Assembly (NCBI GenBank): GCA_043228905.1
Contig: JBHGNT010000008.1
Span: 1,674,001-1,738,000, forward strand
DNA: 64,000 nt
DNA from: Azolla caroliniana
Lineage: Eukaryota > Plantae > Polypodiophyta
Reading direction: 5' to 3'
Shown here piece by piece: positions 513 through 59,183 of the stretch. A program made the position numbers and the translations under genes. The stretch's first letter is position 1. Each line of letters opens with the position of its first letter. A model generated the notes under the pieces. It was not told the origin of the DNA and searched no databases. It saw nothing but the letters and a program-made list of their open reading frames with translations.

Positions 513-582
<70 letters not shown>

Positions 583-16703: not shown

Positions 16704-17100
16704 AACTCCCCCTTCACTCCGGCATGGGGTGTCTTACTAGTTCGATCCTCTTCCGGCATGCATTCAGCTTGTTGGGTATTAGAACTTTTGTCAGCATATC
16801 TGACCCGTTCTCGGCCGTGTGGATCTTCGTCAGTGCGAACTCCTGGTCATCTACTCTTTCCCGGATCCAGTGATATCTTCGCTAGATATGCTTTGTCTGG
16901 GAATGGTAGGCTGCATTCTTAGCAAGATGGATGGCTCTTTGACTGTCACAATAGAGTCGGTATTCATCTTGCCGAATACCGAGCTCTCCGATGAAGTCCT
17001 TCATCCATAATATTTCCTTGCCGGCTTCCACAGCTGCCATGTACTCCGCCTCCGTGGTTGACAATGCAACCGTCTTCTGCAGCCTCGACTGCCACGAAAC
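16704..17100 (-). mobile_element. second copy of the C3 PPT and RNase H beyond its 5' LTR (truncated tandem unit)
   Basis: 16704-17100 repeats 11887-~12283 (PPT, RNase H STTEAEY...KHI) directly against the LTR, then breaks off at about 17100. Confidence 0.9.
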
Positions 17101-24229: not shown

Positions 24230-26299
24230 AATATCTCCAAGATTGCATGTGTTCTCAAATGCATAGTATGCTCGCTTACCCGCCTCTAAGCGGCATGTAA
24301 CACATTCATTCAATCTATGATTTGAAGGAACTTCAAGGCCAAGATATTTGAAGCTTTCCACACATTCAAGTGGCTCATTGTTGTACATAATGCATGGTTT
24401 ATCTCTTTTTTGGCCCTTTACAAGCATAATCTTTGTTTTAGAGCTATTGACACTAAATTTAGTGTTACCCGTAAGAATATACGGGGAGGCATAAGGGTAT
24501 GTGTAATGATGTGTATAATATGAATGAGTGTGTGAGGATGAACACATGCACATTTGTGTGCATGTGTACAAGGGTGAGAAAGTGGGTAAGTAATGTAACT
24601 CCCTACTTGACTCATTCTTTATTTGTAATGGTTACTTCTTGTACTATATAAACCCCACCCATGGGGCATAATGAAAAGATAACTTTTTCCCTCTTATTTT
24701 GGTGTCATTCTTATTTTCACTCTCTCCTTCTCTCTCTCTCTCTCTATCATAATCCCCTTGGCTTCACCCCCCACCCCAACAACACTTTTGGCATGAACGG
24801 TCGACCCCCTTGAGAGGAAGTCTATTCTCACTAATTTGTCTCTCCACCCTCTCTACTGATTGGTCTTTGTGTTAGAGAGTGTGATTTGTGTATAAACTCC
24901 CTATGAGATTGGCCTCCAATGACAATCATATGGCTATTTCTCTTGCGATTATGTCTAATGTATTCAAGGCCTGATGGATATGGCGAGGGGGGGCTGCTTA
25001 TCGTTTGCTAGCATAACTAGTCTCTGTGGTCTTCTCAACCCTTTCAGTCAGCAGAGCCATGGTGTGGCTTCACCCATGATGGGAAGGCGCTAGAGAGCAA
25101 CATTGGGAGATCTATGGCGGTGGTAGTATCAGCGATGGAGAAGGTCATCACCTGTCATCGTCTAGCAATCGGAAACCCATCAGGAAGAATGGGAAGATGT
25201 ATTCTAGCTTGCCCAACTCTCCTCACCTGCATAGGATTGAGGCTGCAGATGTATTCTAACGATCGAAAGGGCCCTACTAGATACCTGCGCATGTCAAGAT
25301 CCCGAAGGAGACAGTTCGAGGGGATGGATATGGCGTGGAATCGAGTGTGAAATGCGGAATCAGAAGGATCATGCAGAAGTGAGAATTAATGCATCTTCAC
25401 CTCCAAAGGTGCTTTTGAGGTACCTTTCTGCTCTGACTGTGAATCAAACTTCTTCTGATGAATATGCACAGCACAAGTCGTTAGATCATTGGTCGGTTAA
25501 ACCTAAACCTAACGAGATCTCTGTTCTCAAGGGACGACTCATGAGCTTGAAAGAAAGCTTCTTCCTACATGAATATAGCTTCCTCCTAAAAGAAAGCTAT
25601 CAGGAGACGAAATTCTACCCACGGGGCAGGATCCCGATGCACGAGCATGAAGACGAGAAGACGGCCGAGGGACCACCGACCTGTCGGATAGAGAAATCGG
25701 ATAGCCACAGAGAGAACCTGACTGACGGTCCGACAACGATGGATGTCGATGGTTGACAAACAGCTATCCGTCCGGATAGAATTCCGACAGATGGTATGGC
25801 CGGACAGACATTACGACAACTGACCAGAGGCGGCCGTATTGACCGGCCGACAACCGATGAATAGACGGCTGACGCGAGAGAGAGACAGAAAGAGGCATGG
25901 AGAGAGACAACTCTGCCCTCCAAGACCTCATGCCATGGTAGCATCAGGTCTTCTCCCCAATGGTCAGCAGACCATGCCATACCCACCATCAGATGCAGAC
26001 AAGGAAAAGAAAGAAGAAATGAAACATGAGACTAAGGAGAAACACAGGAGGCACACATTAGAGAAAGACAGAAGCTATAGAGAGGAGAAGAAGAAAGTGA
26101 CGATGATAGAAGATGCATTAAGAAAGAAGCAACAAACATAAAAGAAGAAAAAGGCAGAACTAATAGAGAAGAGACAAAGAGGAAGAAAGCAGAAGAACAA
26201 TGCAGGTCGAAAGAGGGAAAATAATCAAGAAGTAGCAGAAAGCAAGAGATTTTCTAGAAGAAAGTAGGAGAAAAGAAAGGATGCATTTGGATCAGAGTT

Positions 26300-26388
26300 C
26301 TCATGCCTCGATAAAGAGGCTTCATTCAGAGATTCTGGTGTCTTACCAAGGTGTTGAATCAATCACCGCAACTATGAAGAAGGCAAGA
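26300..26388 (+). pseudogene. captured DUF632-family (DUF630/632) gene fragment
   Basis: [31 protein letters not shown] resembles the DUF632 helix (IKxLHxxIxVxxQxVESIxxxIxKLRDEEL). Recognised from memory only. Confidence 0.55.
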
Positions 26389-26505
26389 GATGAACTCATC
26401 ATGGTTAGCCACATGAGACAGATGAAGAACAATGCCATAGTTTGCAACATTGGTCATTTTGACAATGAGATTGATATGTGCTGCTTCAGGAATTACCATG
26501 GAGTG
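26389..26505 (+). pseudogene. SAHH: captured S-adenosylhomocysteine hydrolase fragment
   Basis: [27 protein letters not shown] matches the highly conserved SAHH motif [19 protein letters not shown]. Confidence 0.9.
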
Positions 26506-28382
26506 ATATGTACATGGCTTGATCTCCATCAAATGGTCTAAACAATCGCCGCCACTGCCACCGCCGCCGCCATCCGCTAGAATCGAAAGGCTGAAGTACA
26601 AATTTAGAATTGGAGAATAGTTGGATTGCAAGTAAAAGGATTCAAGAAGGAGAAGAGGGGCATATAGAAAATTACAATAACTCGAGGGCACGCACTCGAA
26701 TTTTAGAAGCTCGAGGGTAGTAGAGAAGATTTCCAAAACCGGAGGATACCTAATAAAATTCTAAAAACGTGAGGGTAAAAATTAGAATTTTAAACTAAGG
26801 GGTACAAATCGTGAAATTTCGAAAACACAACTCACATGATAAAAGAAAGAATACACAAACGCACAACACGATTTCACAACCCATGCCACATTGAACTAGT
26901 CGATTGGTGTATGATCCAATCGCGACTTGTGCTGACCGAACGAGAAGGTTCGAGTCAAGAAAAGCTCCAATCGAAGTTATCAATCGTAGAGCAGTGATCC
27001 GGTCGAGGGATTTCCGACCGTTGAGGTGACCGATGGAGTTCCGGTCGAGAAGAGTTGTCATGGAGAGTGGGTTCACTGTGCAATGCACTGTCCCACAGGC
27101 GTGCCATGTGTTACCCGTAAGAATATACGGGGAGACATAAGGGTATGTGTAATGATGTGTATAATATGAATGAGTGTGTGATGATGAACACATGCACATT
27201 TGTGTGCATGTGTACAAAGGTGAGAAAGTGGGTAAGTAATGTAACTCCCTACTTGTCTCATTCTTTATTTGTAACGTTTACCTCTTGTACTATATAAACC
27301 CCACCCATGGGGCATAATGAAAAGATAACTTTTTCCCTCTTAGTTTGGTGTCATTATTATTTTCACTCTCTCCTTCTCTCTCTTTTTCGTAACCCCCTTG
27401 GGGGGGGGTTGAAGCCATTCTAAGCTTTACCCCCCACCCCAACAACATTTAGTATGCATGCAAATTTTTTCCAATGCCTTCATAAGGTTTTGTGCATCTC
27501 CTAAAGTATTTGCAAAAAACATTACATCATTTGCATATAGCAAAAGCATAATCACAACATTCCCAATGCCAACTTCTTCAATACATTCTTCCTTTGAAAA
27601 CTTGGTAACCATTTCTTCCAATTCATCAATGCATAGACCAAATAGTGTTGGTGAGAGTGGGCATCCTTGCTTAACACCAATAGTGCTTTTGAAAAAATCT
27701 GAAAGTTGATCTGTCATGCGTACACAACATATAACCTTCTCATAAATTCGGGAAATTGCAAGCATATATTCACTTGACACCTCAAGTTCTTCCATTCGCC
27801 TCCAAAGATGCTCACGAGGTACCATATCGAAAGCTTTCTTGAAGTTTGCAAAGTAACAATATAAACCTTTACCTCTAAGGCAACTTTCCTCCATTAATAC
27901 TTGAAGGGTGACAAGGTGATCAATGGTGCTATGGTGTTTTCGAAATCCAACTTGTCCATAAGCTCTCGTACCATTTTTTTAGCCCATACACTTATCTTTG
28001 ATTCCATTATACATCCAAATAGTTTTGCCATTAATGAGCCAACCATGATGGTTCCATAGTAACTGTTTACATTATTTACATCTCCACCTTTATGTAAAGG
28101 TTTGATCCAATTTGTAGTCCAATCGTATGACATAGTACCATGTTGCAATGCATCATTAAACATATCGCTTATCCATACATGTGCTTCCTTTCCCGTCCAT
28201 TTGAGCATTTCAGCCTTTATACATTGAAGATCGCTTGCCTTTCGAGAGGCCAATTTCTTAAGTCCTATGCATATATCTTCAATTGTAAAGATGAGACACA
28301 TATGTGAAAGAGAACCATAACACATCATCTTTCCAGCAAGAGATACCTCATATAAATTCTTACTATGCATAGACAAGTCGTG

Positions 28383-28441
<59 letters not shown>

Positions 28442-28462
28442 GGAGATACAGAAAGCTTTTTT

Positions 28463-31400
28463 TGACGGGAACTCAAGGCTCCTTATGTCCAACACTCGGC
28501 CACAACCGAGCTTCTTTTCATACGCAGAAAACAGGAAACAAATGCACGACACAGTGGAGAAGAAAAATAATAGTACACAGGAGGTTTACGTGGAAAACCC
28601 CAAACTAGGGGAAAAACCACGGCAGCCCACAGGCTGCAAACTGTCACTATGTGAGAATGTACAACAGTGAGTTCACTGAGGCAACGACCTCGTGCTCACA
28701 GATCTTCGCCACACGCGGCGGTTACAACAGAGGCAACGACCTCTTTCTCTCTCTCTCTGTACACTATTACGTGCTCTCTCTTCTTCTTGCACCAACAAAG
28801 GAAAAATGACAACAACAACAGTTACTAAAAGTTTGCCCTAAGTCATATTTATACTAATATGATTTTTCGGCTATTTACAAATGTAGCCTCAATGGGCTCT
28901 CAAAAACATATTTACGAATATGTCTCTTCATCCGGTTCTCACCGGGTCTGTACCCTCGGGCTCTCCGTAGCCGGGTACTCCTCATCCGGTTCATACCGGG
29001 CCTGCACCATCCAGCTCTCCGTAGCCGGGTATTCCTCATCCGGTTCATACCGGGCCTGCACCATCCGGCTCTCCGTAGCCGGGTACTCCTCATCCGGTTC
29101 ATACCGGGCCTGCACCATCCGGCTCTCCGTAGCCGGGTACTCCTCATCTGGTTCATATCGGGCCTGCACCATCCGGCTCTCCGTAGCCGGGTCCTCCTCA
29201 TACGGTTTCGGCCTCGGCCGAGTTTGTTCATCGGCACTGTTCTTCTTCCTTCCCATCCGGAGGGACCTGTTTCCCAACAAACTCCCCCTTCACTCCGGCA
29301 TGGGGTGTCTTACCAGCTCGATCTTCTTCCGGCATGCGTTCAGCTTGTCGGGTGTCAACACTTGGGTCAGCATATCTGACCCATTCTCGGTCGTGTGGAT
29401 CTTCGTCAATGCGAACTCCTGGTCATCTACTCTTTCCCGGATCCAGTGATACCTCCGCTGGATATGCTTCGTCCGGGAATGGTAGGCCGCATTCTTAACA
29501 AGGTGGATGGCACTTTGATTGTCGCAATAGAGTCGGTATTCCTCTTGCCGTTTACCGAGCTCTCCGATGAAGTCCTTCATCCATAAAATTTCCTTGCCGG
29601 CTTCCACAGCCGCCATGTACTCCGCCTCCGTGGTTGACAATGCAACCGTCTTCTACAGCCTCGACTGCCACGAAATAACTCCCCCTGCATATGTCATTAC
29701 ATACCCGGATGTAGACCGGCTGGTATCCACATCAGCCGACATGTCCGAATCGGTGAAACCGTCCAGTTGAGGTTTTCCGGAGCCAAATCGGAGACACATA
29801 TTTGAAGTGCCCTTCAAATACCGGAGTATCCATTTGACCGCGTTCCAGTGCTCCTTGCCGGGATTGCTCATAAACCGGCTCACCACTCCGACTGCGTATC
29901 CTATGTCCGGTCGAGTAGAAACCATTGCGTACATCAAGCTCCCGACGGTAGAGGCATATGGAATCTTCATCATATCCGCCTTCTCTGCTTTCATCTTTGG
30001 ACTTTGGTTACCGGACAGCTTGCAGTTTGCCGGAAGTGTCGATCCGACCAGTTTTGCTTCTGACATGTTGAACCGGTGAAGCACCTTTGTCACATACTTC
30101 TCCTGTGACAACCATAATTGCTTCACTGACCGGTCCCGAATGATGTGCATCCCCAACATCTGTCTTGCCGGACCCAAGTCTTTCATTGAGAAGGTTCGGT
30201 TGAGAGCCTTCTTCAGCATCCGTATTTTGCCTTGGTCTCGTCCGACGATCAACATGTCATCCACATATAGGAGGAGTATCAGGAAGTCCTCTCCTTCGAA
30301 CTTCTTCACAAACACGCAGTGATTGGCCTGCGTCTTGTGGTACCCTTGATCGGTCATGAAGGAGTCGAACTTCCGGTACCATTGCCGGGGAGCCTGCTTC
30401 AGTCCGTACAGGCTCTTCTTCAACCGGCATACCAGGTGCTCCTTCCCTTTCTCCACAAATCCTTCCGGTTGCTGCATGTAGATCTCCTCTTCGAGGTCGC
30501 CGTGAAGGAATGCCGTCTTCACGTACAGCTGCTCTACCTCGAGGTCCATGCTTGCTGCTATACTCAGCACCATCCGGATGGAGGTCATCTTTACTACCGG
30601 GACAAATATCTCGTCGAAGTCCACGCCCTTCTTCTGCTGGAACCCCTTCACCACGATCCTGGCTTTGTATCTCGGGGGGTTACCGGCATCTCCCGGTTTC
30701 AACTTGTACACCCACTTGTTTCGGAGTGCTCGCTTTCCTTTCGGCAACTCCACCAATTCGTACGTATGGTTCTCATGTAAGGAATCCATCTCATCCGGCA
30801 TGGCACTTAACCATTTTTGGTTGTGGGTGTCTTCCTTCGCTTCTTCGAAACTTTCCGGCTCCCCCTCATCGGTCAGCAGAACATGCTCTGCATCCGGAAA
30901 TCTTCGGGGCGCCCTTCTCTCTCTGAGAGGATATCTACGTCTTCGGGCTTCGGTAACCGGCTCCTCCATTTTCTCTTCATCCGAATCCGATTCAGGGTCT
31001 TTGCCGGTTCCGGTCTCAGCTTCCTCTACTTCTTCTTCTGCCGGTTCGGTATCCTCACCGTAACCGGCTGGTTCCTCGAGTTCTAACCGGTCTCTTGCCG
31101 GTTGGGTCTGCTCATCGTAGAGTCGATCCTTACCAGTCAACTCGGAGTTCATTATCTTCTTCTCCGACTCCCAGTCGGCGAGCGTCTTGTCCTCCATGAA
31201 GATAATATCTCGACTCCGGAATACCTTCTTGTCAACCGGGTCCCACACTCGGTAGCTGAACTCATCGTCACCGTAACCGAGGAATATGCATGGCCGGGTC
31301 TTTGGATCTAGCTTTCCTCTCCGGTCCTTAGCTACATGCACATACGCGAGACACCCGAACACCTTCAGATGCCGGTAGGATACTTCCTTACCGGTCCACA

Positions 31401-34217
31401 CTCTCTGTGGCGTGTCTCCGTCCAAGGGTACTGAGGGTGATCTATTTATCACGTATGTCGTCGTCGACAATTCCTCAGCCCAAAACTTCTTGGGTAGTTT
31501 TGCATGCGCTAGCATACTCCGGACCCTCTCCATTATGGTCCGGTTCATCCTCTCGGCCAGTCCGTTTAGTTCCGGCGTCTTCGGCACGGTAAATTCGAGC
31601 CGGATTCCCTTCGAGTGGCAGTACTCCTCGAACTGCCCCCGGTATTCTCCTCCGTTGTCTGCTCGAACCGCCTTCAGCTTCCGGCCGGTTTCTCTTTCCA
31701 CTCTCGCGTGGAGCTCTTTGAAGACGGATAACACCTGATCCTTCGTCTTCAGCGGTGTGGCCCACAACTTCCGGCTGTGGTCATCTATGAACGTCACGAA
31801 GTACTGTGCTCCGGCATGTGACTTCGTGTCTACTTGACACACATCCGTATGCACCAACTCCAGTGGTGCATTACGTCTCATCGGTGCCCTTGGTCGGAAG
31901 GAGGTCCGGTTCTGCTTACCGGCCAGACAATCAGTGCACTTCTCTAAGTGCACGTTCTTCACTGGAATGAGGTTGTCGTCTGCAAGCCTCTTCATCCCCT
32001 TCTCGCTCATATGACACAACATCTTGTGCCACAGCTCACCGGTAGTGTCAGATGCCACGTTCACTTCTTCCGGACATAACCGGGCATTCATCAGGTACAA
32101 CGTGTTGACCTTCTGGGCCCGAGCCACAATCCGGCTCCCTTTGTTCAACTTCATGACCCCGTTCCGGATGCTACCCGTGTAGCCTTCATCATCTAGCCGA
32201 CCGACTGATATCAGGTTCAGACGAACCTCCGGAACGTGTCGGACATCCTTCAACAGCAACTTGCATCCTGTTGGTGTTGACAGCCACACGTCTCCTATGC
32301 CGATAATTCGGCATGTACCTTCATTTCCCATCCGGACACAACCGTGGTCACCGGCTAAGTAGGATGAGAAGCATTTCCGGTCCGGGGTAAGGTGGAACGA
32401 CGCTCCGGAGTCTACCACCCAGGTCATCTCGTCGCCGGCAAGGTTTATCTCACTCTCATCGGTGATGAGCATCAACTCTTCTTCACTTGCTGCGATTGCC
32501 GTCGTTCCCTTCCGGTCCATCCCCTTCCGGTCTTTACCGTTCCGGTCCGGGGTTTGCTTCGAATCGGTACGGTCGGTTTCCTTGTCTTTACGGAAATGCC
32601 GACAGTTCTTTTGGAAGTGTCCCGGCTTGCCGCAATAGAAGCAAGTAGGCCTCCCCCTTGACTTTGACCGTGTCCCCGACTTCTCCCGGTTCTGAGGACT
32701 ACGGTTTCTATGTCTTTCGCGTTCAGATTCGGTAAGGAGCGCTTTGGAGTCGGAGCTCGTATCTTTATCCTTCCGATGCGCCTCCTCATCTAGCAAGCTC
32801 GACTTTACTCTTGCTAGGGATAACCATTTTCCTTCCGGCCCGGCGTTGCCCAAAGTGACAACCAACGTCTCCCAGCTATCCGGGAGGGAACCGAGTAGGA
32901 GTAGCGCTAATACCTCATCGGCAAGAGGTACTTCCAATGACGTTGCCTGGTGTATCAGCCCCTGGAAGGCATTCATATGCTCCGCCATGCTGGAGCCATC
33001 TTGGTACCGGAGTCTTACTAGCTTCCGGAATACCGAAACCTGATTAACAACATTTTTGTTTTGAAACATTATGCCGATCTTCTCCCAGAGCTCATGAGCC
33101 TTGCTGTCTTCATTGAAGTTGTTGTACAGGCTCATGTCGATGAAGCACCGTATGTACGCCGTTGTCTTCATGTGCATCACCTCCCATATCGTGGCGTCGA
33201 TTTTGTCCGGTCTCTTGTCCCCGAACTGAACCGGCAACCAGAGGTCTTTAACAACGAGCATGTCCCTCATCTTCGACTTCCATACTGAATAGTTGGAGCC
33301 GGTGAGCTTGAACATGCCGCCAAATGATTCGTCCATTTTCCGTGTCAACCTCGCTCTGATACCACTTGACGGGAACTCAAGGCTCCTTATGTCCAACACT
33401 CGGCCACAACCGAGCTTCTTTTCATACGCAGAAAATGGGAAACAAATGCACGACACAGTGGAGAAGAAAAATAATAGTACACAGGAGGTTTACGTGGAAA
33501 ACCCCAAACTAGGGGAAAAACCACGGCAGCCCACAGGCTGCAAACTGTCACTATGTGAGAATGTACAACAGTGAGTTCACTGAGGCAACGACCTCGTGCT
33601 CACAGATCTTCGCCACACACGACGGTTACAACAGAGGCAACGACCTCTTTCTCTCTCTCTCTGTACACTATTACGTGCTCTCTCTTCTTCTTGCACCAAC
33701 AAAGGAAAAATGACAACAACAACAGTTACTAAAAGTTTTCCCTAAGTCATATTTATACTAATATGACTTTTCGGCTATTTACAAATGTAGCCTCGATGGG
33801 CTCTCAGAAACATATTTACGAATATGTCTCTTCATCCGGTTCTCACCGGGTCTGTACTATCCGGCTCTCCGTAGCCGGATACTCCTCATCCGGTTCATAC
33901 CGAGCCTGCACCATCCGGCTCTCCGTAGCCGGGTACTCCTCATCCGGTTCATACGGGGCCTGCACCATCCGGCTCTCCGTAGCCGGGTACTCCTCATCCG
34001 GTTCATACCGGGCCTGCACCATCCGGCTCTCCGTAGCCGGGTACTCCTCATCCGGTTCATACCGGGCCTGCACCATCCGGCTCTCCGTAGCCGGGTACTC
34101 CTCATCTGGTTCATACCGGGTCTGTACCATCCGGCTCTCCGTAGCTGGGTCCTCATACGGTTTGTTCATCGGCACTGTTCTTCTTCCTTCCCATCCGGAG
34201 GGACCTGTTTCCCAACT
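28463..34217 (-). mobile_element. Ty1/copia LTR retrotransposon (element C4), near-intact, inserted in the C5 3' LTR
   Basis: LTRs 28463-29279 and 33367-34217; PBS 33353-33364 (-); PPT 29280-29290; TSD TTTTT. Same family as C3. Confidence 0.95.
29290..33336 (-). pseudogene. copia Gag-Pol polyprotein of C4 with a single in-frame stop (29653-29655)
   Basis: Continuous ORF from MDESFGG through CFYCGKPGH, WVVDSGAS, HTDVC, YGLKQAPRQW and YVDDML to ...WQSRL*. RNase H continues in frame to 29290. Confidence 0.93.
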
Positions 34218-36840: not shown

Positions 36841-39063
36841 TAATTGTATTTATACTTATACACACTATGGGCTATTTACAAATATGTCTAGTATTATTAT
36901 TGTCTGCTAATAACACTAACAATCCATAATCAACCAATTGATCAACTAGTCAATTCAACTAGTCGGGTCTAGTGTTGACTGAGCGACTAGTCGATCAATT
37001 ATTCCGCCTTGTCGTCGACCCTCTAGTCGGCCCGACTAGTTGGTCTTGTCTTTGACTTGGATCGTCTACTGTTGACTGTCTCTTAGTTGACTCACCCAGT
37101 CAACTCTCATTGTCTTCAATTGTCGGCTCTCTACCCGACTAGTCGGTTACTCCTTGTCTTCGAACGTTGGATCTCGGGCCAACCAGTCGGCTCCTCCCAT
37201 AGAAGGGACATATTCCTAACACTTTAGTAGTCTCATCATTCAAGGGAGATAAGAAAGAAAGTACCAAGGAGGCCATCAACATTTGGCTTGGTCGTTGGGA
37301 GTCTCACTTTTAGCTTCATCCCAAATCAGAAGTTGTAAACATTGGTTATGTCAGCCATGAGTTCGGTGGCCAAGCTGATGCTTGGTGGCGTGGCCTAAGG
37401 ACTGCAAAGAACTTACCCACAACTTGGGAAGGTTTCGTCAATGTTTTCAAGAAACGGTTCTTGCAGCCACCTTCTCAAATCGAACAAGCGCAACACTTGA
37501 TCACGTTGTTGAGTAAGCCATTTACCTCTCTCGAGGATTATGTGCATCGTGCTTCGACCCAAATCCAAAAATTGGGACTCACGGGTGAGAAATGGTTTGT
37601 CGCTTGTTTTTTGAATGGTATTCCCAATGGCAATTGCCATTGAATCTTCCATGACAAGGACCCCGCAACTTTTGAGGAAGCAGTCAACATTGTATTCCGG
37701 TACCATAGGACTTCCAAGAAAGACTACAATAAACCTGAGTTCGCCAAATCTCCGGATGTCAAGTTCATTGGGAAATGTAAGCAATCTAGTGACATTCTTG
37801 ACCGTGACTCAAAGAAATTGAACCTCTTTTGTGTGTATTGCAAGAAGCAGGGCCACACAAAGGATAGTTGTCGTCATCTTGAGAGAAGTCAATGAACAAC
37901 CCTACTCAGGACAAATCTATGAGTCACACGTGTGAGGCTTTTGATGTTATTGAAGTTCATACCAACCATTTAAGTTCATGTGAATGCACTTTTCCTTCAC
38001 ATTTACTTGGACCTAATGATTTACTTCGACCACTCGGGTATATCAATGGAACACAAGCACATTTCTTGTTTAATTCAGGTAGTTCTCACGGTTTTCTTAA
38101 TGATCACTTGGTGCAACAAATGCAACTCCACATAAACGCAAGTGATCATATCTAAACATTTTATTCAATGTGTTGTTGGGGTGGGGGGTGAAGCCATTCT
38201 ATAGCTTCACCCCCCTGCCAAGGGGGTTACATGTGTGCGAAAGAGAGAAGTAAAGAAAAATTGAGAATGACACAAAAATGTGAGGGGAAAAATGTCTTTT
38301 CATTACATGCCCATAAGGGGTTTATATAATACATCTAATGTAACGGTTACATGACCATTATAAATAAGACCGTTACACATTCTTGTACACATGCACATAA
38401 TTGTGCATGTGTCCATACACATACTCACACACTCATTTACTTTACACATACACATTAACCACACCATTACACCTACCCTTATGCCTCCCCGTATATTCTT
38501 ATAGGTAGCACATGGCACGCCTGTGGGACAGTGCCTTGCACGGTGAACCCAATCGCCATGGCAACTCTTCTCGATCGGAACTCCATCGATCGTCTCAATG
38601 GTCGGAAATCCCTTGACCGGATCACTGCTCTATGATCGATAACTTCGATCAGAGCTTTGCTTGACTCGAACCTTCTTGTTGAGTCAGCATAAGTCGCAAT
38701 TGGATCATACACCAATCAACTAGTTCAATGTGGCATGGGTCGTGAAATCGTGTTGTGCGTTTGTGTATTTTTTATTTCATAATGTGAGTTGTGATTTCGA
38801 CATTTCATGATTTGTACCCCTCAGTTTTTTTTTTCTTAAAATTATATTAAGTACCCTCCGGTTTTAGAAATTTTATGTCCTGCCCTTCTGTTCCCGAAAT
38901 TTGTTTGCGTGCCTTCAAGTTTCTGAAATTTTCTTCTTGCCCCTTTCTCTTTTCTTTCTTTTCGATTTTTGAAATTCCCTTGTTCACCCTTGGCATTTTG
39001 AAATTTGTCTTCTACCCTCGAGCTTTTGAAATTCGAGTGTGTGCCCTCAATTTTCTGAAATTT

Positions 39064-39473
39064 TGGAAGACCAACAGAAACCTCAAGGCCATAATCATCC
39101 GCAACTTGTTTCATAAGAGAGTTAACTTGATCTTCAGGGGTAGAAAGAGATGTGCTTCCAACCATGGCCTACTCAACAAACTCAGCCTGGACCTCCATAT
39201 TGACAAACGTCTGTTCAAACTAATCCATGGTCTGGGATATATCTTCTGGATATTTCCCAGAGCAAGGGCGTTATTGAGAGCTTTAACTATATCGGACATG
39301 GATTTGTTTATGGTCTGCATATTGCTCTGTGTGTTGAGGCGAAATATCACTGCGTCAAGGCGACATAATTCAACTGCTCATTTCTCTTACGAATTGTGCT
39401 CTTGGCGTAGATCCGAGCTCCATCCATGTTCCCTTTCTTGATGGCTTTCTTGACCTTGACCTTTTCGCTCTTC
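39064..39473 (-). pseudogene. CHMP1: captured ESCRT-III CHMP1/VPS46 coding fragment
   Basis: [23 protein letters not shown]...RLDAV...NKSMSDIVKAL...[32 protein letters not shown]; frameshifted, with no intron visible over ~410 bp. Confidence 0.9.
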
Positions 39474-39494
39474 TGTACAAGGTTGTTTGAGCCA

Positions 39495-39630
39495 GATCTA
39501 GTTTTCACGCTGGATAAGCTCAACAAATTGTCTGCAAAGGACCTTGTGCTAGGGCTGGGCTGATCATGTCCTTGTTGTTGATGGCTATAGCATCCCTTAG
39601 AAGATTGCCATCCAGATCTCTGGGGATGAA
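39495..39630 (-). pseudogene. possible captured F-box gene fragment
   Basis: Reading through stops gives PEIWMAIF...[16 protein letters not shown], an F-box-like pattern. Confidence 0.4.
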
Positions 39631-42600
39631 GACGGTGTCTTCTTCGACTTCTTCGTCTTCTTCTTGGAAGACGCTACAACACTCGTGAGACACCGTGGAT
39701 GAGGCGTCAACAAGAGCACACATATATAAGACTCAGCCTGATGATCTGCAGGAAAGGGATGCAGATGAGTTATCACTCCCATGATTATGTTCCATTCCGG
39801 ATGCCTCCCCAAAAGGCATATGAGTGCAGCAAGCATTCCTCCAGTGGCAGCAACTATGGTCGCTGGACATTTCTACTATTGTCGCTCTTTCTTCCTGCTT
39901 CCCTCAACAAAACTAGGCTCCCGTAGCGGGGAGATCGGGAAGAGATGGAGGAGGAGAAGGAGAAGATCAGAAAAAAGGAAGAAAATGGAGGAAGAATCAT
40001 CCGTGCGAACAGGGAAGATTCCATCAAGAAGAAGTTCATGCCCAGATAACCGCGTAGTGAGCTAGCATCTGAGGGTTTCTTGTAGATGCCAAAGTCATCC
40101 TCTGACAGGTCGCTGCACTTGGGTTCTCTAAGAGAGTAGCAACAACAGGGGAAAAGGAAGTGGAAAGGAAGAAGGCCCAGCCTCTCCCGATCTCAGATCA
40201 TATTCATCGCCACGCTCGTGTCTCATGTATGTAAGGTCTGGCCGAGGAGGAGCAGGCAACATTATGGATGATACATTGTAACATTCCCTGTGGTGTGCTT
40301 ATGAATGAATTTGCATGAGGAATGAAGAGGTTCCTCTGAACAAGGTAGAGAAAGGAGAACACAGGAAGGCTCTCAACATAGAGACTACATGGACAAACGA
40401 CGATACTCTCTTCTGACACAGACACAAACAAACACACATAGAGATGGAGAGAGAGATTTGTGATGGAGAGGGGGAGTGAGACTTCTTCTCAAGGGAGGTC
40501 GTCCCAGCGGGGCGTGCCAAAAGTGCTGTTGGGGTGGGGGGTGAAGCTCAAAGGGGTTACAATAGGGAGAGAGCTAGAGAGAGAGACATAGAAACAACAC
40601 CAAAATGAGAGGGAAAAATGTATATATCATTACATGCCCATAAGGGGTTTATAAAATACATCCATTGTAATGGTTACATGACTGTTATAAATAAGACCGT
40701 TACGCATTCTTGCACACATGCACATAATTGTGCATGTGTCCATACACATACTCACACACTCATTTAGTTTACACATACACATCAACCACATCATTACACC
40801 TACCCTTATGCCTCCCTGTATATTCTTACAAGTAACACAAAGTTCCAAACTTCCTTCTCTTTCACTTGTGTCTTATAAATCTTTAAGTGAGCATTCTCGT
40901 TTATCAATTTATTCGTGTGTAATTGATCTTGCGCTTCAATTTTATTATTTTAATATTGACGCCACACAATTGCCACATTATGAAGGACAATTACTCGACT
41001 CTATTTTAGACGATTTTCAAGATGTGTTTCCTAACGATCTTTACCACCAAAACGTAATGTGGACCATCAGATTGAACTCATCCCCTGTGCTGCTCCTGTG
41101 AGCATTCCATCTTGTCGACTTAGTCGATTAAAAGAGGATGAGGTCGATTAGGTATAGTAAATCACCTTGGGTTGCGCCAATTTTGTTTGTTAAGAAGAAA
41201 GAAGGTTCATGATGAATGTGTATCAATTATCGTCGTTTGAATAAAATGACAATAAAAAATGCATGTTCGTTACCTCGTGCCGATGATTTGATTGATCATT
41301 TGCATGGGGCTAGATATTTTACGAAAATTGACTTACAAAAAGGTTATCATCAGATTCGCATTGCCGAAGATAATATTCTCTTCCTGGATTGCTCATGAAC
41401 CGGCTGACCACTCCGACTGCATATCTGATATCCGGTCGTGTGCACACCATTGCACACATCAAACTTCTGACAATAGAGGCATATGGTATCTTCATCATTT
41501 CCGACTTCTCTGCGTTTGTCTTCGGACTTCCGGACAACTTGCAATTTTCTGGAAGTATTGACCCGACCGGCTTAGCATTCGTCATGCTGAATCGTTGGAG
41601 CACCTTCATCACATACTTCTCTTGTGACAACCATAACTGCTTCTTCGTCCGGTCTTGGACTATGTGCATCCTCAAAATCTGTCTTGCCGGTTCCATATCT
41701 TTCATTGCAAAGGACCGGCTCAAGGCCTTCTTCAGCATTCCGATTTAGATACGGTCTCGTCCGACGATCAACATGTCATCCACGTACAATAGTAGTATCA
41801 GAAAATCCCCTCCGACAAACCTCTTCACAAATATGCAGTGGTTGGCTTGCGTCTTGTGGTATCCTTGGTCGGTCATGAAGGAGTCGAACTTCCGGTACCA
41901 TTGCCGAGGATCTTGCTTCACTCTGTGTAAGATCTTCTTCAACTGGCACACCAGGTGCTCCTTCCCTTTCTTGACAAACCCGTTTGGTTGTTGCATGTAG
42001 ATCTCTTCTTTGAGGTCACCATGTAGGAACGTCGTCTTGACAACTAGCCACTCGACCTCGAGGTCAACGCTTGCCGCAATGCTCAAACACAGTCCAGATG
42101 AATGTCATCTTTACTACCGGGGCAAAGATCTCATCGAAATTCACTCCTTTCTTCTATTGGAAGGCCTTCACCACAATTCAGGCCTTATACCTTGGTGGAT
42201 TTCCTGCGTCTCCTGGTTTCAACTTGTGCACCCATTTGTTCCGGAGCGCTCTCTTTCCTTTCGGCAGCTCCGTCAGTTCATATGTGTGGTTCTCATGTAG
42301 GGAATCCATCTCATCCTACATGGCACTTAACCACCTGCGGTTGTGAGTGTCTTTCTTTGCTTCTTCAAAGCTTCCTAGCTCCCCCTCTTTGGTTAGTAAA
42401 ACGTGCTCTGCATCCAGAAATCTCTGGGGGGCTTTCTCTCTCTAAGAGGATATCTTTGTCCTTGGTTTCCGACCACCAGTTCCTCTGCCTGTTCTTCATT
42501 TGAATTTGTTTCAGGGTCTTGACTGATTCCGGTGTCCAATTCTTCTCCTTCGGTTGGTTTGGTTCCTCATCCGAATCTAGCCGGTTCATCATGGTCCTCG

Positions 42601-44420
42601 TCTGACATCCAGCTTCCGACGGGATGTGTCCTAGCATCATCCAACTGATCTCTGTTGGTTGACCTGGAGTGCACTATCTTCTTCTTCGACTCTCAATCGG
42701 CAATGATGTTGTTTTTCATGAAGACTATGTCTCGACTCTGGAAAACCTTCTTGTCAACCATGCCCCAAACCCGGGAGCCGAACTCATCATCGTCGTATCC
42801 AAGGAATATGCATGGTCCGGACTTTAGATTCAATTTCGTTGTCCTTTGCTACATGTACGTAGGCAAGACAACCGAACACCTTCAGATGCCGATAAGACAC
42901 ATCTTTACCGGTCCATACTCTCTATGGTGTGTCTCTGTCCAAGGGCGCTGATGGTGAGTTATTTATTACATATGTCGTTGTCATCAGTGCCTCAGCCCAA
43001 AACATCTTGGATAGCTTGGCATGTGCAAGCATAGTTTGGACTCTCTCCATTACAATCTGCTCATCCTTTCAGCCAATCCGTTCAGCTCCAGTGTCTTCAG
43101 CATAGTAAATTCGAGCCGTATTCCTTTTGACCGACAATACTCCTCAAACTACCCCCAGTATTCTCTTGTGTTGTTCACTTGAACCACCTTCAACTTCCGA
43201 CCTGTTTCTCTTTCCACTCTCACGTGGAACTCCTTGAAGCCGAATAATACCTAGTCCTTCATCTCGGTGAGACCCATAGCTTCCAACTGTGGTCATCTAT
43301 GAATGTCATGAAGTACTCTGATCTGGTATGTGACTTCATGTCCACTTGGCATACATCGGTATGCACAAGCTCTAGCAGTGCGTTCTGTTTTATCGGTGAT
43401 CTTGTCCGGAAAGAGGTATGGTTTTGCTTGCTGGCCATGCAGTCGATGCACTTCTCAAGCTGCACGTTTTTCACCTCCGAAATGAGGTTTTCCTCAGCAA
43501 GTTTACGCATCCCTTTCTGGCTCATGTGGCACAACCTCTTGTGCCACAACTGAGCGGCATTGTCGGATGCCACGTTCACGTCTTCCCGGCATATCCGGGC
43601 ATGCATCAGGTATAGTGTGTTGATCTTCTAGGCTCGAGCCACGATCAGGCTTCTTTTGCAAAACTTCATGAGTCCGTTCCGGATGCTACCCATGTAGCCT
43701 TCATCATCTAGCCGACCAGTTGATATCAGGCTCAACCGAACCTCCGGAACGTATCATACATATTTTAGTAGTAACTTGCACCCGATTGATGTTTTCAAAC
43801 ACACATCTCCTATGCCGACAATTCGGCATGCACCTTCATTTCCCATCCGGACACAACCGTGATCTCCAGCTCTGTACGATTAGAAGCATTTTTGGTCGGG
43901 GGTAAGATGGAACGACGCTCCAGAGTCAACCACCCATGTCGTCTCATTGCTAAGAAGATGCAACTCATTTTACTTAGTGATGAGCAACGGTTCTTCTTCA
44001 CTTGTCATGATTGCTGTTGTTCCTTTCCGATTTGAACTTCTCCGGTCTAGACCCTTCTTCGAGTCGGCATTTTCGGTTCCTTTCTCCTTTCGGAAGTGTC
44101 GTCAATTCTTCTGGAAGTGCCCTAGCTTCCCACAATAAAAGCAAGTGGGCCTTCCCCTGGACTTTGACCTCGTCCTTGATTTTTCCCGGTTTCGGGGACT
44201 CCAATTCTGGCCTCTTCCCCGTTTTTTGTTGTCTTCCATAACCAAGGCCTTCGGATCAGTTCTGGACTCCTAGTCCTTGTAGCGAGCTTCTTCATCCAAC
44301 AAACTTGATTTTACCCTTGTTAGGGATAGGTGTTTACATTCCAGCCCGACGTTGCCCAAGGTGACAACCAATGTCTCCCAACTATATGGGAGGGAACCGA
44401 GTAGCAGCAACGCGAGTACC

Positions 44421-44680
44421 TGTTTGGTTAGAGGCACTTCCAACGAGGTTGTTTGGTTTATTAGCCCCTAGAAATCATTCACGTTGTCATGAAGATTTCC
44501 GGCTATAGTGTGAAACCGGGGTGGAATGGGCAAATCGGTGGTGTGCAACATGTTTGGTTAGAGGCACTTCCAACGAGGTTGTTTGGTTTATTAGCCCCTA
44601 GAAATCATTCACGTTGTCATGAAGATTTCCGGCTATAGTGTGAAACCGGGGTGGAATGGGAAAATTGGTGGTGTGCAACA
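44421..44680. repeat. 130-bp tandem duplication spanning the gag/solo-LTR junction
   Basis: TGTTTGGTTAGAGGCAC...GTGTGCAACA at 44421-44550 and 44551-44680, with two visible mismatches. Confidence 0.92.
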
Positions 44681-45140
44681 TGTGCATGTGTATACTAGGA
44701 AATGGTGTGTAGAAAGAAGAGGGGAAATTTTATCCCATATTGTAAGGTCCCTCCCTCCTTGGGCTATAAAAGGAAGGGAGGGGTCACTTATGAAGGGTTG
44801 CCTATTTTGCGTATGAAAGGTATACCCCTTAGTGTAGAGTTCTTACCGTTTTAGGGTTAGGGTTTCGTGTAGGGTCTCCTTGTTCATCCCCGGTTAGGGT
44901 TTTCTCATAGTTTTGGTGTGGTCCATGCGGCCACCATCGTTGTAATCAATCGTTCATTTTAATATATCTTGTTGTGGATCTTGCTTCCATCTATTTTGGT
45001 CTATGCTTATGTGCTACTCTTCATCTTCTCATCCGGTGTTAAGCTTCCATTTCTCATATCTTATTCTTTCTCCTCTACTCCCTAGTCCAAGACCCCCGTG
45101 GTCCCGCCCCTTCTACATGCACACGCATAACAACGCGACA
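44615..45140 (+). mobile_element. solo LTR (gypsy-type TGTC...CGACA group) in the C5 gag
   Basis: TGTCATGAAG...CGCGACA with a 4-bp TSD ACGT (44611-44614 / 45141-45144); TATA-like CTATAAAAGG. Confidence 0.85.
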
Positions 45141-46078
45141 ACGTGCTTGGACATACTGGAGCCGTCTTGATATCTGAGTCTCACTAACTTTCGGAAGACT
45201 GAGACTCGAGTTACAACATTCTTGTTCTCAAACTTGAGGCCTATCTTCTTCCGAAGTTCACGAGCCTTAGTCTCTTCATTGAAATTGTTGTACATGCTTA
45301 TGTCGATGAAGCATCGAATATAGGCTATCGTCTTCATGTGCATCACTTCCTAGGTCACGACATCGATCTTGTCTGGTTTTTTGGTCCCGAACTAACTGAC
45401 ATCCTGAGATTTTTAACCACAAGCGTGTCCATCATCTTCGACTTCCACACTGAGCAATTGGAGCCGGTGAGCTTGAAGATGTTGCTGAATGGATCTTCCA
45501 TGCTCTGATACCAGCTTGTGCGGAATTGTGCTCGGCCACAATCGAGTCTCACTCGCTCAATGGAAAAAAATAGAAAAATAGAAAAAAGACGACATAGAGT
45601 ATTAACGTGGAAAACTTAAAAGGCAAAACCACGGAAGTCCTCGGAACTCCGAATAGGATCACTATAGAGAAGAGGTACAACAATGTGAAACTCAAAGGCA
45701 ACGACCTTGAGCTCTACCTTCACCAATCGGCAGTTACAATAGAAAAACTTTCTGTATCTCTCTTTGTCTCTCTCTCTCTCTATACAACGATACAACATAG
45801 CAACTACAATAATAATCACACCATAATAGTATTGCCCTAGTTATATTTATACTTATATAACTTTGGGGCTATTTACAAATATGACCTCATGGTCATGTTT
45901 GAACATATTTACTAATATGTTCTTATTTGCTGGTTCATACTGGATCTGGCCGGTCTCCTTTTGGATCCATCCGATCCGGTATCCGTATACCTTTTGAACC
46001 CATTTGGTTTGGTTCCTTCCTTCGGCTCGTCTGATCTGGCTCATCCAGATTCCATCCGGAGGGACCTGTTTCCCAACA

Positions 46079-51376: not shown

Positions 51377-53985
51377 CTGTTAAGAGTCTATTACTAACTA
51401 ATAGACCAATAAAGTAAAATAAGGTAAACATATTGCATAGAATAACCTGTTCCACCCGACCACCCCCGAGCTATGATCAAGACATAGCCAACCTACCACT
51501 CACGTCCCATACCGCCGGATATTAGAATGACGAATACCTTGGAAGAGATTATCATGATCGTCGTGACAAAAGCCTAGCCCACACCACCGGTGTCTAAGAC
51601 AACCACCCTTCAACGTAATGTACCTGTGAGGGTAGCTAAGCCTCATATTTATACCTCTCCCTAAGCCTCTTGAATAGATGTGCCTTTCTAAAAGACTCTC
51701 CATTCATTGATTGTCCAAATCATGATAGTGCATGCACCTATCACTCCTTCTATCCTATCACATTAGTCTGTTTTTAACATTAGTGAACATGCCCTTCACT
51801 TATGCAAATATTAGTGACCTACCTTCACCTATATTATGTGTAAATAACAAAAGCTTATAAGAGAAAGTACCAAGACTACTTTGTAACTAGCCATTTGCAC
51901 TCCCTACTAAAAATCATAAATCATAAATAAGAAGAAATGTTATTTATAATGACTACATTCATCAATAACTACGTCAACATCCTAACCCCGCCATTCAAAA
52001 GCTACATTTCGTATGTACGCCAACTCTTATGCATCCTTTTAACAAATCTGGTGTTCCAAGCCCCTGAGAATCATGAATGTGGTAAATCTTGGTGGGGTTT
52101 AGAGTTTGATTTGAATACATGTCTTGGGAAGTGGCAATGAAGTGGTTTATGGAGTTGATTTTCAAACTATGGTGGACAACATTATTCATCCCACCCTTGG
52201 TGGAGTTTGGCAAACACCCTTCATCTCTCACCTCCTGGTTAGCCATCTGGCAACTTTATATATGAACCAACTCTCCATCTTTCTCTATTCCTCTCGATCA
52301 ATATAACAAACACGCTCACCCCTGTCAACACTCAAACGCCTCCTTCATACCCTAGTACCATTCCCACTCTTACCTTTTGTTCATCGAATGCATTGCATGA
52401 ATCCCCATTTACTAAACACATCACCACTGTGGGTGGACCCAAGAGTGTGCACTCATTAGGTTTGGGGGGATGTTACAGATAGGTACCACAAGATCAAAGG
52501 AAAAGAGACCTTACGATGAACAAACAAATGTAGCTCCAAGAGGAGTAGAAATGGAAATAACTAAAAATATGTAAAAGAACACATATAAAACTAGTGTTTA
52601 AAGCTTTATTCATGGACTATGTGCTTTTCATATCATTTTATTATCTTCATCAGAGCTAGTTGTATCTCTCCAAGCTTGGATCTATGTGTATATACAAACT
52701 ATTGAGGAATGCAAGATCTAATATAAGGTTAAGTCTATTGAGGTGCTATTTTATTAAGTTTCATATTAAGGTTTAGTCTAAAAAGTTATTAGTGAAGTTT
52801 ACAAATAGGTGTTAAGTAGTTTGTTGATACCCTGAAAGTTGGATTGACACACATTTTCCACCCCTTCCCAACAAAAAGGGTGCATGATTACTCGTTCCTC
52901 ACAACGATCTTACATGAATGAATTCGTTTGTTAGTCACAAAAGAGAGTTACATGTTTGCTTTTGAAAAGAACTGAAATTCCATCTCAATACACATGGCAA
53001 GAATATCACCTTCTAATATAAGGCCTTTTGTGCACCCTATTATGAAAAAGGTTAAAATATTGTAAAAGACATTAAAGGTTGTTGAGAGTCGAACTCAACT
53101 TCCCATAGTAATAGGTTTCACACTAGCTCATGGACATACCATGCTAGTTTTGTAAATAGTAGAAAGAGCACTTACCCTAGCTTAGTTGGTATTTAAACCA
53201 ACCCCTTGTAACTTAGTTACTATTGGAAGTATTTTGGTCAATGTAATATACCGTCTTTTATATCTGTCTTAAGCTCTCTCTATCTCTCTCTGTTTTGCCT
53301 TACGTGCATACACACACACACACACACAGTCCTTCCGCTGCATCTCAACCACTCTTGCTCCTCATTTTGTTTACATGGTATCAGAGCATGTTGTTGCTTA
53401 ATCGAATCTATTCAACTGTGTTGTGGTACACGTTGACGATCGACAGAACTAGCTCATCAACAAAGAAGAAATCGACATAATGAACACTCAGATGGGAAGC
53501 GCTCTTCCTATCGAGAAGCTTGATAGAATGAACTTCGAATCTTGGGAATACAAGATGCATCAATACCTTGTTGGACAAGGTTACTGGAGCTACATTGAAG
53601 GAGCTGACAAAACTCAACCCAACCCAACACACGTCGACTATCCCGCTTGGGAGCAGGCCGCAAACCATGCGTTGTATTGCCTTGCATCATGCGTTCATGA
53701 TCATAAGCTTGGCTATATTTGAGATTCGAATACACCGAAAGAAGCTTGGGGAAACCTCAAGAAGATTTTTGGGGCCAACACGACTGCATGAAAGCTCCAA
53801 CTTCGACAAGAGCTAAACAACATGCAATAGAGGGACATGTCGATCACAGGCTATACACTAAAGATTAGGGAGCTGTGTGATGCCCTCGGTTCGATTAATG
53901 TCGTAATCGACGATGAAGAGATGGTGCAAATATGTTGGGATTACGGTCCCTCCGGATGGGATGGTCAGATGTCCGGGAATCGGGA

Positions 53986-54150
53986 ATGAAGACCCGGTTC
54001 CGGAGCCGGATAATGAAGACCCGGTTCCGGAGCCGGATGATGAAGACCCGGTTCCGGATCCGGATGATGAAGACCCGGTTCCGGATCCGGATAATGAAGA
54101 CCCCGGTTCCGGATCCGGATGATGAAGACCCCGGCTACGGAGCCGGATGA
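53986..54150. repeat. 27-bp CCGG-rich tandem repeats in C7 LTRs (also ~58801-58965)
   Basis: Unit ATGAAGACCCGGTTCCGGA(G/T)CCGGAT(A/G), about 6 copies. Confidence 0.92.
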
Positions 54151-54333
54151 CGAATGTACCCGGAGAGAGATCCGGATGCGGGGACATATTTGTGAATATG
54201 TTTGCCAAGGGCCCTTGAGGCTATATTTGTAAATAGCCCGAAAGTCATATGTGTATAAATATGACTTAGGGCAAACAGTTTTGTTGTTGTTGCTCATTTT
54301 TCTGTTTTCACTTAGAGAGAGTGAAGAGAGCAG

Positions 54334-54368
<35 letters not shown>

Positions 54369-54663
54369 GAAGAGGTCGTTGCCTCTGTGTATTACCGCCG
54401 CCTGTGGCGAAGACAGTGAGCTCAAGGTTGTTGCCTTGTAGCTTCACCATTGTACATCTCTGTTTGTAGTGATAGTTGGAGTTTGAGGACTCCCGTGGTT
54501 TTTTCCCATTTAGGGTTTTCCACGTAAAACATCCAGTGTACTCTTCTCTCTATAGACTTCGTGCATTTTGTATTTCCTGTTTTCTGTGAGTTAATCATAT
54601 TCCTCGGTTGTGGCCAAGCATTGTGCTCAACAAAGTGGTATCAGAGCGACGGCAGTGCAGAAA

Positions 54664-58737: not shown

Positions 58738-59148
58738 AGGGGGAGTTTGTTGGGATTACGGTCCCTCCGGATGGGATGGTCAGATGTCCGGGAATCGGGA
58801 ATGAAGACCCGGTTCCGGAGCCGGATAATGAAGTCCCGGTTCCGGAGCCGGATGATGAAGACCCGGTTCCGGATCCGGATGATGAAGACCCGGTTCCGGA
58901 TCCGGATAATGAAGACCCCGGTTCCGGATCCGGATGATGAAGACCCCGGCTACGGAGCCGGATGACGAATGTACCCGGAGAGAGATCCGGATGCGGGGAC
59001 ATATTTGTGAATATGTTTGCCAAGGGCCCTTGAGGCTATATTTGTAAATAGCCCGAAAGTCATATGTGTATAAATATGACTTAGGGCAAATAGTTTTGTT
59101 GTTGTTGCTCATTTTTCTGTTTTCACTTAGAGAGAGTGAAGAGAGCAG

Positions 59149-59183
<35 letters not shown>

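Follow-up and report, generated by a model that had tools for sequence, protein, structure and literature searches.

Two LTR elements with a tRNA-like site in place of the polypurine tract

The window analysed here, a 64-kb stretch of contig JBHGNT010000008.1 from Azolla caroliniana, contains two copies of one long terminal repeat (LTR) retrotransposon family, here referred to as copy A and copy B. In these and in related Ty3/gypsy elements, the position of the polypurine tract (PPT), 2 nt ahead of the 3' LTR, is taken by a 41-nt site that resembles the host tRNA-Arg(UCU). The anatomy of the site, its orientation, its match to the tRNA, and the occurrence of tRNA copies at both LTR ends were read directly from the sequences, and the arrangement is real, widespread, and recently active. 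It is very probable, judging from the tRNA copies, that a second host tRNA annealed to the minus-strand cDNA primes the plus strand in these elements. An original prediction, made from the letters of the window, had reported the same 17-mer at the same place in both copies; when the motifs were re-located in the window sequence, they lay at the positions given and the 17-mer was identical in both copies. The features, in element order, are as follows.

Copy B
40838..40842, unstranded: target site duplication (TSD) on the 5' side of the element, CAAAG, a 4/5 match to 38166-38170
40524..40837, reverse strand: 5' LTR (TG...CA), 276 identities over 313 aligned columns with the 3' LTR
40501..40519, reverse strand: minus-strand primer-binding site (PBS) TGGCACGCCCCGCTGGGAC for tRNA-Arg(UCU), 4 nt (CTTT) from the LTR; a tRNA-like allele with one extra base
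38554..40500, reverse strand: interior without gag-pol similarity
38544..38553, reverse strand: upstream block, a match to tRNA positions 49-58 (5' strand of the T-stem plus T-loop)
38530..38543, reverse strand: hairpin insert (GTGC/GCAC stem) at the tRNA A58/G59 boundary, with compensatory changes over 32 LTR types
38513..38529, reverse strand: 17-mer, tRNA-Arg(UCU) positions 59-76 including CCA minus one base, occupying the place of the PPT
38511..38512, reverse strand: 2-nt spacer TG between CCA and the 3' LTR
38171..38510, reverse strand: 3' LTR
38166..38170, unstranded: TSD on the 3' side, CAATG

Copy A
24458..24462, unstranded: TSD, TTTAG
24463..24784, forward strand: 5' LTR
24789..24806, forward strand: eroded minus-strand PBS, 4 nt (CTTT) from the LTR
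26383..26496, forward strand: captured S-adenosylhomocysteine hydrolase gene fragment (Pfam PF00670, E 1.2e-11)
27066..27106, forward strand: 41-nt site (block 49-58 at 27066-27075, hairpin at 27076-27089, 17-mer at 27090-27106)
27109..27447, forward strand: 3' LTR, beginning 2 nt past CCA
27448..27452, unstranded: TSD, TTTAG, 5/5 match

TSDs of 5 bp had been claimed for both copies; the two sides agree fully in copy A (TTTAG, 5/5) and at four of five positions in copy B (CAATG/CAAAG). Both copies have LTRs, both priming signals, and a TSD and lack coding capacity, as do non-autonomous LTR elements of the large retrotransposon derivative (LARD) or terminal-repeat retrotransposon in miniature (TRIM) kind, and similarity to the pol or second open reading frame (ORF2) of their autonomous relatives was sought in both and not found. 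With most other members of its family (the B family), copy B has interior sequence in common only over roughly the first 100 nt, on the 5' side, and the last 280-570 nt, on the 3' side. Nine longer B-family regions contained only unrelated nested pol (nested copia or distant pol), and no autonomous element with a B-family LTR was found among them. The search for an autonomous partner that the original prediction had proposed thus gave none sharing the LTR, but did yield autonomous relatives of the same clade, in which a PPT is absent as well. Copies A and B, being non-autonomous, would be mobilised in trans, probably by the L076-type autonomous family, as suggested by the shared CTTT spacer and PBS and by two chimeras. 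In the latter, a B-type LTR end is fused to the 5' untranslated region (UTR) of the L076-type family (L321-L322, C18 near 2305139 and 2305486). Interiors differ almost wholly between B-family copies, and the family may shuffle host fragments, e.g., the hydrolase piece in copy A.

The 41-nt site and its match to tRNA-Arg(UCU)

The tRNA-Arg(UCU) genes of the host genome end in GTGGGTTCGA GTCCCACCGGGCGTG. Relative to this end, the site consists of tRNA positions 49-58, a 14-nt insert, and positions 59-76 with CCA less one C. The proposal that the 17-mer derives from a tRNA 3' end was borne out, as it fits the tRNA-Arg(UCU) genes L103, L107, L108, and L110 called by ARAGORN, none of which carries a genomic CCA; a tRNA gene itself lacking the deleted base was not found among the 23 matches of a pattern permitting it. 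The original prediction had recognised the 17-mer but only that part of the site, which extends over 24 nt more, i.e., the hairpin and the second tRNA block (38530-38553 in copy B, 27066-27089 in copy A).

To compare families, 32 LTR types were aligned, namely the medoids of 27 of 33 clusters plus five single loci (12 rows from the host genome, 20 from metagenome contigs); three near-duplicate clusters and the loci L203, L205, and L211 were left out. L211 is a site locus with an internal deletion, and L203 and L205 match the 17-mer without the block or hairpin and were set aside as chance or unrelated matches. The columns upstream of the 49-58 block are unconserved. In the insert, 17 cells are changed on both sides of the hairpin stem, covering three of its four pairs, a number reached in none of 500 shuffles of these related rows, and slid controls gave 2-4 cells. 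A self-folded T arm in the element RNA was considered and rejected, because the self-paired T-stem shows no compensatory change and its G53-C61 pair is broken in 10 of the 32 rows. With RNA parameters and an unmodified tRNA, cofolding predicted a three-way junction for copy A and for the four alignment rows inspected.

One may ask whether the stretch acts as RNA, mimicking a tRNA as a self-primer for the 5' PBS or as a cyclisation or packaging signal, with the plus strand primed by something unrecognised. A complementarity of about 10 bases between the stretch and the element's own 5' PBS in B-type and L076-type families would suit such a role, but L093-type families keep the Arg(UCU) site though their PBS is of the Arg(UCG) type, the T-stem lacks compensatory change, real tRNA copies at U5-type ends (19/24, see below) point to a host tRNA as the minus-strand primer, and the tRNA at U3 ends would be left unexplained. 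This explanation is most unlikely.

Abundance, position, and orientation

Across the 523-Mb host assembly, the 17-mer has 427 exact matches and a one-base variant (G for A) followed by NN-TGT has 1,310, so that more than 1,700 exact core copies of the site are present; as the reversed patterns gave 0 matches, chance occurrence can be dismissed. For each of the first 40 of the 427 matches listed, an ACA LTR end lies at a distance of 2 nt, and the LTRs concerned belong to several unrelated families. By pattern, the upstream block is present in 39 of 40 loci, and the 40th has the block with one further change. When loci were sampled by LTR rather than by motif, the end of the motif directly preceded 96 of 241 B-family LTR starts, and the first 30 such loci comprised 12 3' LTRs with the site, six 5' LTRs with a PBS, four solo LTRs with exact TSDs, and eight that were unplaceable. 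The site stands 2 nt ahead of the 3' LTR in each of the 12 two-LTR B-family copies examined (A, B, and 10 further pairs), whose TSDs agree at 4 or 5 of 5 positions, and likewise in all seven longer copies with the 3' LTR in view.

The site is equally regular in autonomous relatives. L093, an intact 9.8-kb element with identical LTRs and the TSD GACTC, encodes a 1937-aa Gag-Pol and a second ORF and carries the site at its 3' end, in the tRNA sense. A reverse transcriptase (RT) search gave at least 121 matches at 98-100% identity, and of 20 of these, chosen for long ORFs, 19 show the same 2-nt gap between the site and the 3' LTR (in the 20th, that LTR lies beyond the stretch); the first 380 nt of the LTR pair are mismatch-free in 10 of the 19. 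None of these 19 visible 3' junctions has a PPT, in agreement with what had been noticed in the window; seven of the 15 nt preceding the spacer are purines. By way of control, both window copia elements inspected have ordinary PPTs before their 3' LTRs. Element orientation is fixed by the intact gag-pol elements (the 19 of 20 RT-selected copies). In the B family, a tRNA-Arg(UCU) copy with CCA (L291) sits on an end bearing the CTTT spacer, which identifies that end as U5; both lines of evidence agree with the orientation originally assigned. Beyond the host genome, the site occurs in metagenome contigs with LTR types absent from the host sample, and the 3' region of L093 is present in sequencing runs of two organisms, none of the runs listed being of RNA; viral contigs gave no match by site pattern or by RT.

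These data also bear on whether the site could be a relic without function, left by a single old inversion or tRNA insertion. Such a relic might lack excess conservation inside the B family, as is the case, and descend from the likely single origin of the site, its autonomous carriers being a single clade. Against it stand the retention of the site in 32 LTR types with unconserved upstream columns and compensatory changes, its presence in a family whose copies, at least 121 of them, are 98-100% identical in RT and have near-identical LTR pairs, and the lack of an adjacent purine tract to serve instead; it is barely conceivable.

Lineage of the carriers

The 1937-aa ORF of L093 contains, in order, the Pfam domains Retrotrans_gag, zf-CCHC, RVT_1, RT_RNaseH, Integrase_H2C2, and rve; a protease motif was read by eye, with no Pfam match for protease, and the RNase H motifs are intact. 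The autonomous relatives show the Ty3/gypsy domain order, direct TG...CA LTRs with a TSD, and a tRNA-Arg(UCU) or tRNA-Arg(UCG) PBS. A 966-codon extra ORF (ORF2; L093 500-3397, reverse strand) follows pol and appears coiled-coil-like by eye; it matches no Pfam family, and its Atlas leads, all below 0.9, are streptophyte clusters, one set with Transposase_28 and one with a plant mobile domain.

The nearest named RT relatives of the carriers are from Riccia, Marchantia, and Adiantum (49-52% identity). In a quick RT-RNase H tree of 123 rows, which left out 18 of 20 L093 clones and about 29 mostly animal or algal proteins, the carriers form one clade (26 rows, support 100), which has three unnamed proteins next to it and lies among sequences from liverworts and ferns. 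In this tree, built without REXdb, Phygy, or Selgy references, the clade lies apart from the angiosperm rows, which we take to be Athila, and from four proteins bearing an archaeal-type RNase H (aRH). Four motif-tagged rows fall outside the clade at 24-33% identity, and we take them for unrelated elements inserted into carriers. For most rows tagged 'nd', no sequence further downstream was included; the site was later found for L101, L297, L300, and L302, and was not found for L272 and L279, both rearranged. A single origin of the site seems likely, since the autonomous carriers form one clade.

The label 'Tat-related' used in the original prediction finds no support: L093, the intact autonomous relative, has no RVT_3 or RNase_H match at E 0.01, i.e., no detectable aRH, and does not group with the aRH-bearing rows in the tree. 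Judged against the Neumann 2019 criteria, the clade counts as non-chromovirus and not Tat (PMC6317226). They share with Athila the absence of aRH in a non-chromovirus and the extra ORF, and they lack the tRNA-Asp/Asn PBS and PPT-LTR junction of Brassicaceae Athila.

tRNA primer copies at LTR ends

In canonical LTR reverse transcription as outlined for Ty3 and HIV-1 in the cited sections, a tRNA at the PBS starts the minus strand and an RNase H-resistant PPT the plus strand (PMC5371799, PMC13191261, PMC5618025). Unremoved tRNA then marks the U5 end of HIV-1 cDNA and unremoved PPT the U3 end (PMC5618025), and copying of the tRNA halts after 18 nt at 1-methyladenosine 58 (m1A58; PMC13191261).

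A genome-wide search for tRNA-Arg(UCU) 3' ends with CCA gave 24 matches (L271-L294), of which 19 lie at U5-type ends, four at U3 ends, and one without an LTR. For the L061/L066-type, C16-type, L101, and B-family ends, an independent check confirmed the U5 call; five matches (L272, L284, L290, L292, L293) were called by spacer form only. The 19 real tRNA copies at U5-type ends indicate that the minus strand is primed by a host tRNA. LTR ends in this genome commonly bear a reverse transcript of the mature tRNA-Arg(UCU) with CCA (23/24), with five T, one G, and one C at A58. Several such copies would pass as tRNA genes; ARAGORN called L101.

Three patterns searching for the full-length 18-mer followed by NN-TGT gave 14 distinct places: eight U3 ends, five U5-type ends, and one unclassified (L363, where the 18-mer is joined to the end of no recognised family). 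The eight U3 places represent five independent events, in each of which a true tRNA-Arg(UCU) copy with CCA, free of the hairpin and the deletion, is joined through the family spacer to a U3 end, namely:

1) C2:12014889: 54 nt of tRNA, CCA, and TG, followed by the 5' LTR, the PBS, and the whole L244 element; the locus is triplicated
2) C2:12742724: a 53-nt tRNA match with T at A58, the family's TATG, an LTR resembling that of copy B, and the PBS; the element's own site follows 2.5 kb on, with the same TATG
3) C16:17527333 and 17527821: U5, spacer, an extra T, exactly 18 nt of tRNA, AG, and U3, twice, followed by the PBS, gag-pol, and the element's own site with three base differences, all within an AATAG TSD
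4) C20:881301: 18 nt of tRNA, TG, LTR, PBS, and gag-pol, with the element's own 17-nt site at 871582
5) C3:21697344: 18 nt of tRNA, GG, and a U3 end belonging to the L076-type family; the copy is inverted and rearranged

In events 1-4 the LTR concerned is the 5' LTR, followed by the PBS, and the element's own 3' site differs from the tRNA copy. In events 3, 4, and 5 the copy is exactly 18 nt long and ends at the m1A58 stop; the T at A58 in event 2 is a mark of RT read-through of m1A. A mirror junction at C10:14180236 keeps the minus-strand primer and has a clean AG-U3 end. The PBS of events 1, 2, and 4, TGGCGACCAC, fits the tRNA-Arg(UCG) genes L329, L330, and L338, and Arg(UCG) copies with CCA lie at U5-type ends in five of 13 matches, which came from a looser pattern, a stricter one giving none. 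Priming of the plus strand by a tRNA on minus-strand cDNA, which had been put forward from the window, gains support from the copies retained at U3 ends.

Two further loci carry tRNA sequence. At L368 (around 1500; C21:3207025), the U5 end of one family, an 18-nt tRNA copy, and a U5-type end of another family follow one another, which would be end-joining of two different cDNAs. L324 (about 200-4200; C18:10912699-10916655) has tandem units of about 1.3 kb, in which a whole tRNA complement occupies the PBS position three times and four 3' sites are degenerate, and looks like a tandem TRIM-like array.

The junctions also weigh on a different account, in which the element's own tRNA-like RNA survives RNase H as a non-purine PPT and the U3 copies stem from RT switching onto packaged tRNA. 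The site does lie in the PPT position with the usual 2-nt spacing, its one-base deletion is fixed in more than 1,700 copies, as an element-specific signal might be, and the homology of at least 10 bases at the CCA end would presumably allow a template switch. However, the tRNA's sequence was found in five of five junction copies and the element's in none, and in four of them the LTR is a 5' LTR with a PBS behind it; a short fragment of the element's site lacking the hairpin was not seen ahead of any LTR, the block being present in 39 of 40 loci and, with one more change, in the 40th; and the hairpin covaries, yet could not form within an RNA:DNA hybrid. A non-purine PPT is accordingly improbable.

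Strand order and a model for plus-strand priming

Retained primers alone cannot separate plus-strand priming from first-strand priming on an antisense transcript, and the overwriting of sites by tRNA sequence was therefore used as the discriminator. Among CTTT-spaced 5' PBSs, 22, which may take in other families, match the tRNA over 18 nt, versus 60 with the B-family allele. Of 50 B-type 5' junctions, eight are tRNA-like by script, with copy B as a ninth by eye, and a whole tRNA complement follows the 5' LTR at C1:14810620 and C10:14180267. Overwriting of the 3' site was not found, the hairpin lying upstream in none of the 14 full-length 18-mer places. In the cited part of the literature, the PBS of Ty1 and Ty3 is not inherited from the tRNA (PMC5371799); the argument is valid only because this clade, unlike them, does overwrite its 5' site.

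This discriminator disfavours the second suggestion of the original prediction, namely copying from antisense transcripts or from both strands, with the 3' site as a first-strand PBS. By symmetry, a tRNA at the U3 end of the 5' LTR would be equally expected there, and TATA-like words occur on both LTR strands. The first-strand PBS, though, is what the clade overwrites (the 22 versus 60 PBSs and the two loci above), and no overwritten 3' site was found; moreover, gag-pol and ORF2 lie on one strand, and a tRNA primer would be needed at each end all the same. Antisense copying is very improbable.

Plus-strand priming by a second tRNA would proceed as follows. The sense RNA would be primed at its 5' PBS by a tRNA-Arg, UCU or UCG depending on the family, to give the minus strand, and RNase H would remove the RNA, including the tRNA-like stretch. 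The bared minus-strand DNA could then pair with positions 59-76 of tRNA-Arg(UCU), one tRNA base being bulged, and with positions 49-58, while the DNA's own 4-bp hairpin would loop out opposite m1A58, which cannot pair. Extension by RT from the CCA would define the left cDNA end as the 2-nt spacer plus TG. RNase H would normally cut the tRNA at the RNA-DNA junction, and integrase would trim the 2 nt, leading to the 5-bp TSDs. Where removal fails, RT would copy the primer, mostly to m1A58, and the copy would become fixed at the U3 end. It is quite probable that this extends to a whole plant Ty3/gypsy clade without PPT, in which both strands are started by tRNAs, in some families by two isoacceptors, and in which the second tRNA docks on the cDNA in a three-way junction around m1A58.

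Several points weigh against this model. It draws on genomic footprints, and the five retained-primer events are few and all from one assembly; events 1 and 4 show no clean TSD. In an outside read set, junction 1 is represented by a 48-nt exact contig with 16 nt on the LTR side, short of the bridging rule, and its left flank is uncovered. Most rows of the 32-type alignment were found via the exact 17-mer, whose conservation there is circular, and the relatedness of the rows inflates the shuffle test. Copy B folds otherwise in the cofolding model, without the three-way junction, and under the same conditions (RNA parameters, unmodified tRNA) the second block betters predicted binding by more than 1 kcal/mol in only 22 of 32 rows. 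Comparison of the 17-mer with its flanks, proposed as a check in the original prediction, revealed no excess inside the B family: among 11 LTR-selected 3' LTRs, identity to the majority reaches 1.0 in the block and 0.95-0.97 in the flanks, against 0.94 in both the 17-mer and the hairpin. Conservation is visible between families, and post-insertion decay may hide any excess within this one. Finally, the fixed one-base deletion lacks an explanation under tRNA priming.

Relation to known systems

Comparisons in this section refer to the cited parts of the papers named. The elements resemble Ty3 and HIV-1 in their tRNA-primed minus strand, the 18-nt stop at m1A58, primer remnants at LTR-LTR junctions, a short spacer before U3, integrase-type TSDs, and what appears as one retained ribonucleotide at the U5 end (the extra T of the C16 junction); unlike Ty3 and HIV-1, the clade lacks a PPT and its U3-end remnant is a host tRNA instead of a purine tract. 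With the Athila side of the OTA superclade they share Gag-protease-RT-RNase H-integrase without a chromodomain or aRH match, a further ORF downstream of pol, a PBS set off from the 5' LTR by a short T-rich spacer, and a 5-bp TSD (PMC6317226; ATHILAfinder, 10.64898/2026.03.20.713144). Brassicaceae Athila, in contrast, use tRNA-Asp/Asn and have a conserved PPT-LTR junction (ATHILAfinder, 10.64898/2026.03.20.713144), whereas this clade uses tRNA-Arg and has no PPT; unlike the angiosperm Athila-like rows, it also branches among liverwort, fern, and unnamed proteins.

The PBS of Ty1 and Ty3 is likewise bipartite, with one block for the acceptor end and another, at a distance, for the T arm of the same tRNA, but there genomic RNA pairs and the minus strand is made, whereas here minus-strand DNA would pair and the product would be the plus strand (PMC5371799). 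The Helenus, Ajax, and Cassandra TRIMs are likewise non-autonomous LTR elements with tRNA-derived sequence; theirs lies inside the LTR, has no priming role according to its author, and coexists with a PBS and PPT (PMC10886601). No precedent for a tRNA-primed plus strand or an inverted PBS replacing the PPT was found in the literature searched; subscription papers, Repbase, or the Neumann 2019 supplements could hold a mention. Cer7 of C. elegans reportedly encodes its own tRNA-like primer. The arrangement is most likely a new variant within Ty3/gypsy replication, PPT-less and with a tRNA-primed plus strand.

The literature consulted presents the PPT as the general plus-strand primer of retroviruses and LTR retrotransposons. 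If the variant is true, the second primer need not come from RNase H and RT can start on a tRNA paired to DNA; a second target would also be predicted for tRNA fragments, on the antisense strand or the cDNA. The clade is successful, with its more than 1,700 core sites in one 523-Mb genome and many identical LTR pairs, and annotation tools requiring a PPT would miss or invert such elements. Through retained-primer junctions, primer use can be read directly in assembled genomes, and since the site spans only 41 nt, short oligonucleotides would suffice to test the mechanism.

Other features of the window

A LINE-like RT fragment (RVT_1) on the reverse strand at 27427-28472 is the apparent insertion target of copy A. 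Related copia elements lie at 11065-17100, 28462-34216, 41383-46078, and 53933-59449, the last with LTRs that are 99.7% alike, and six tandem units of about 105 nt each occupy 20108-20753.

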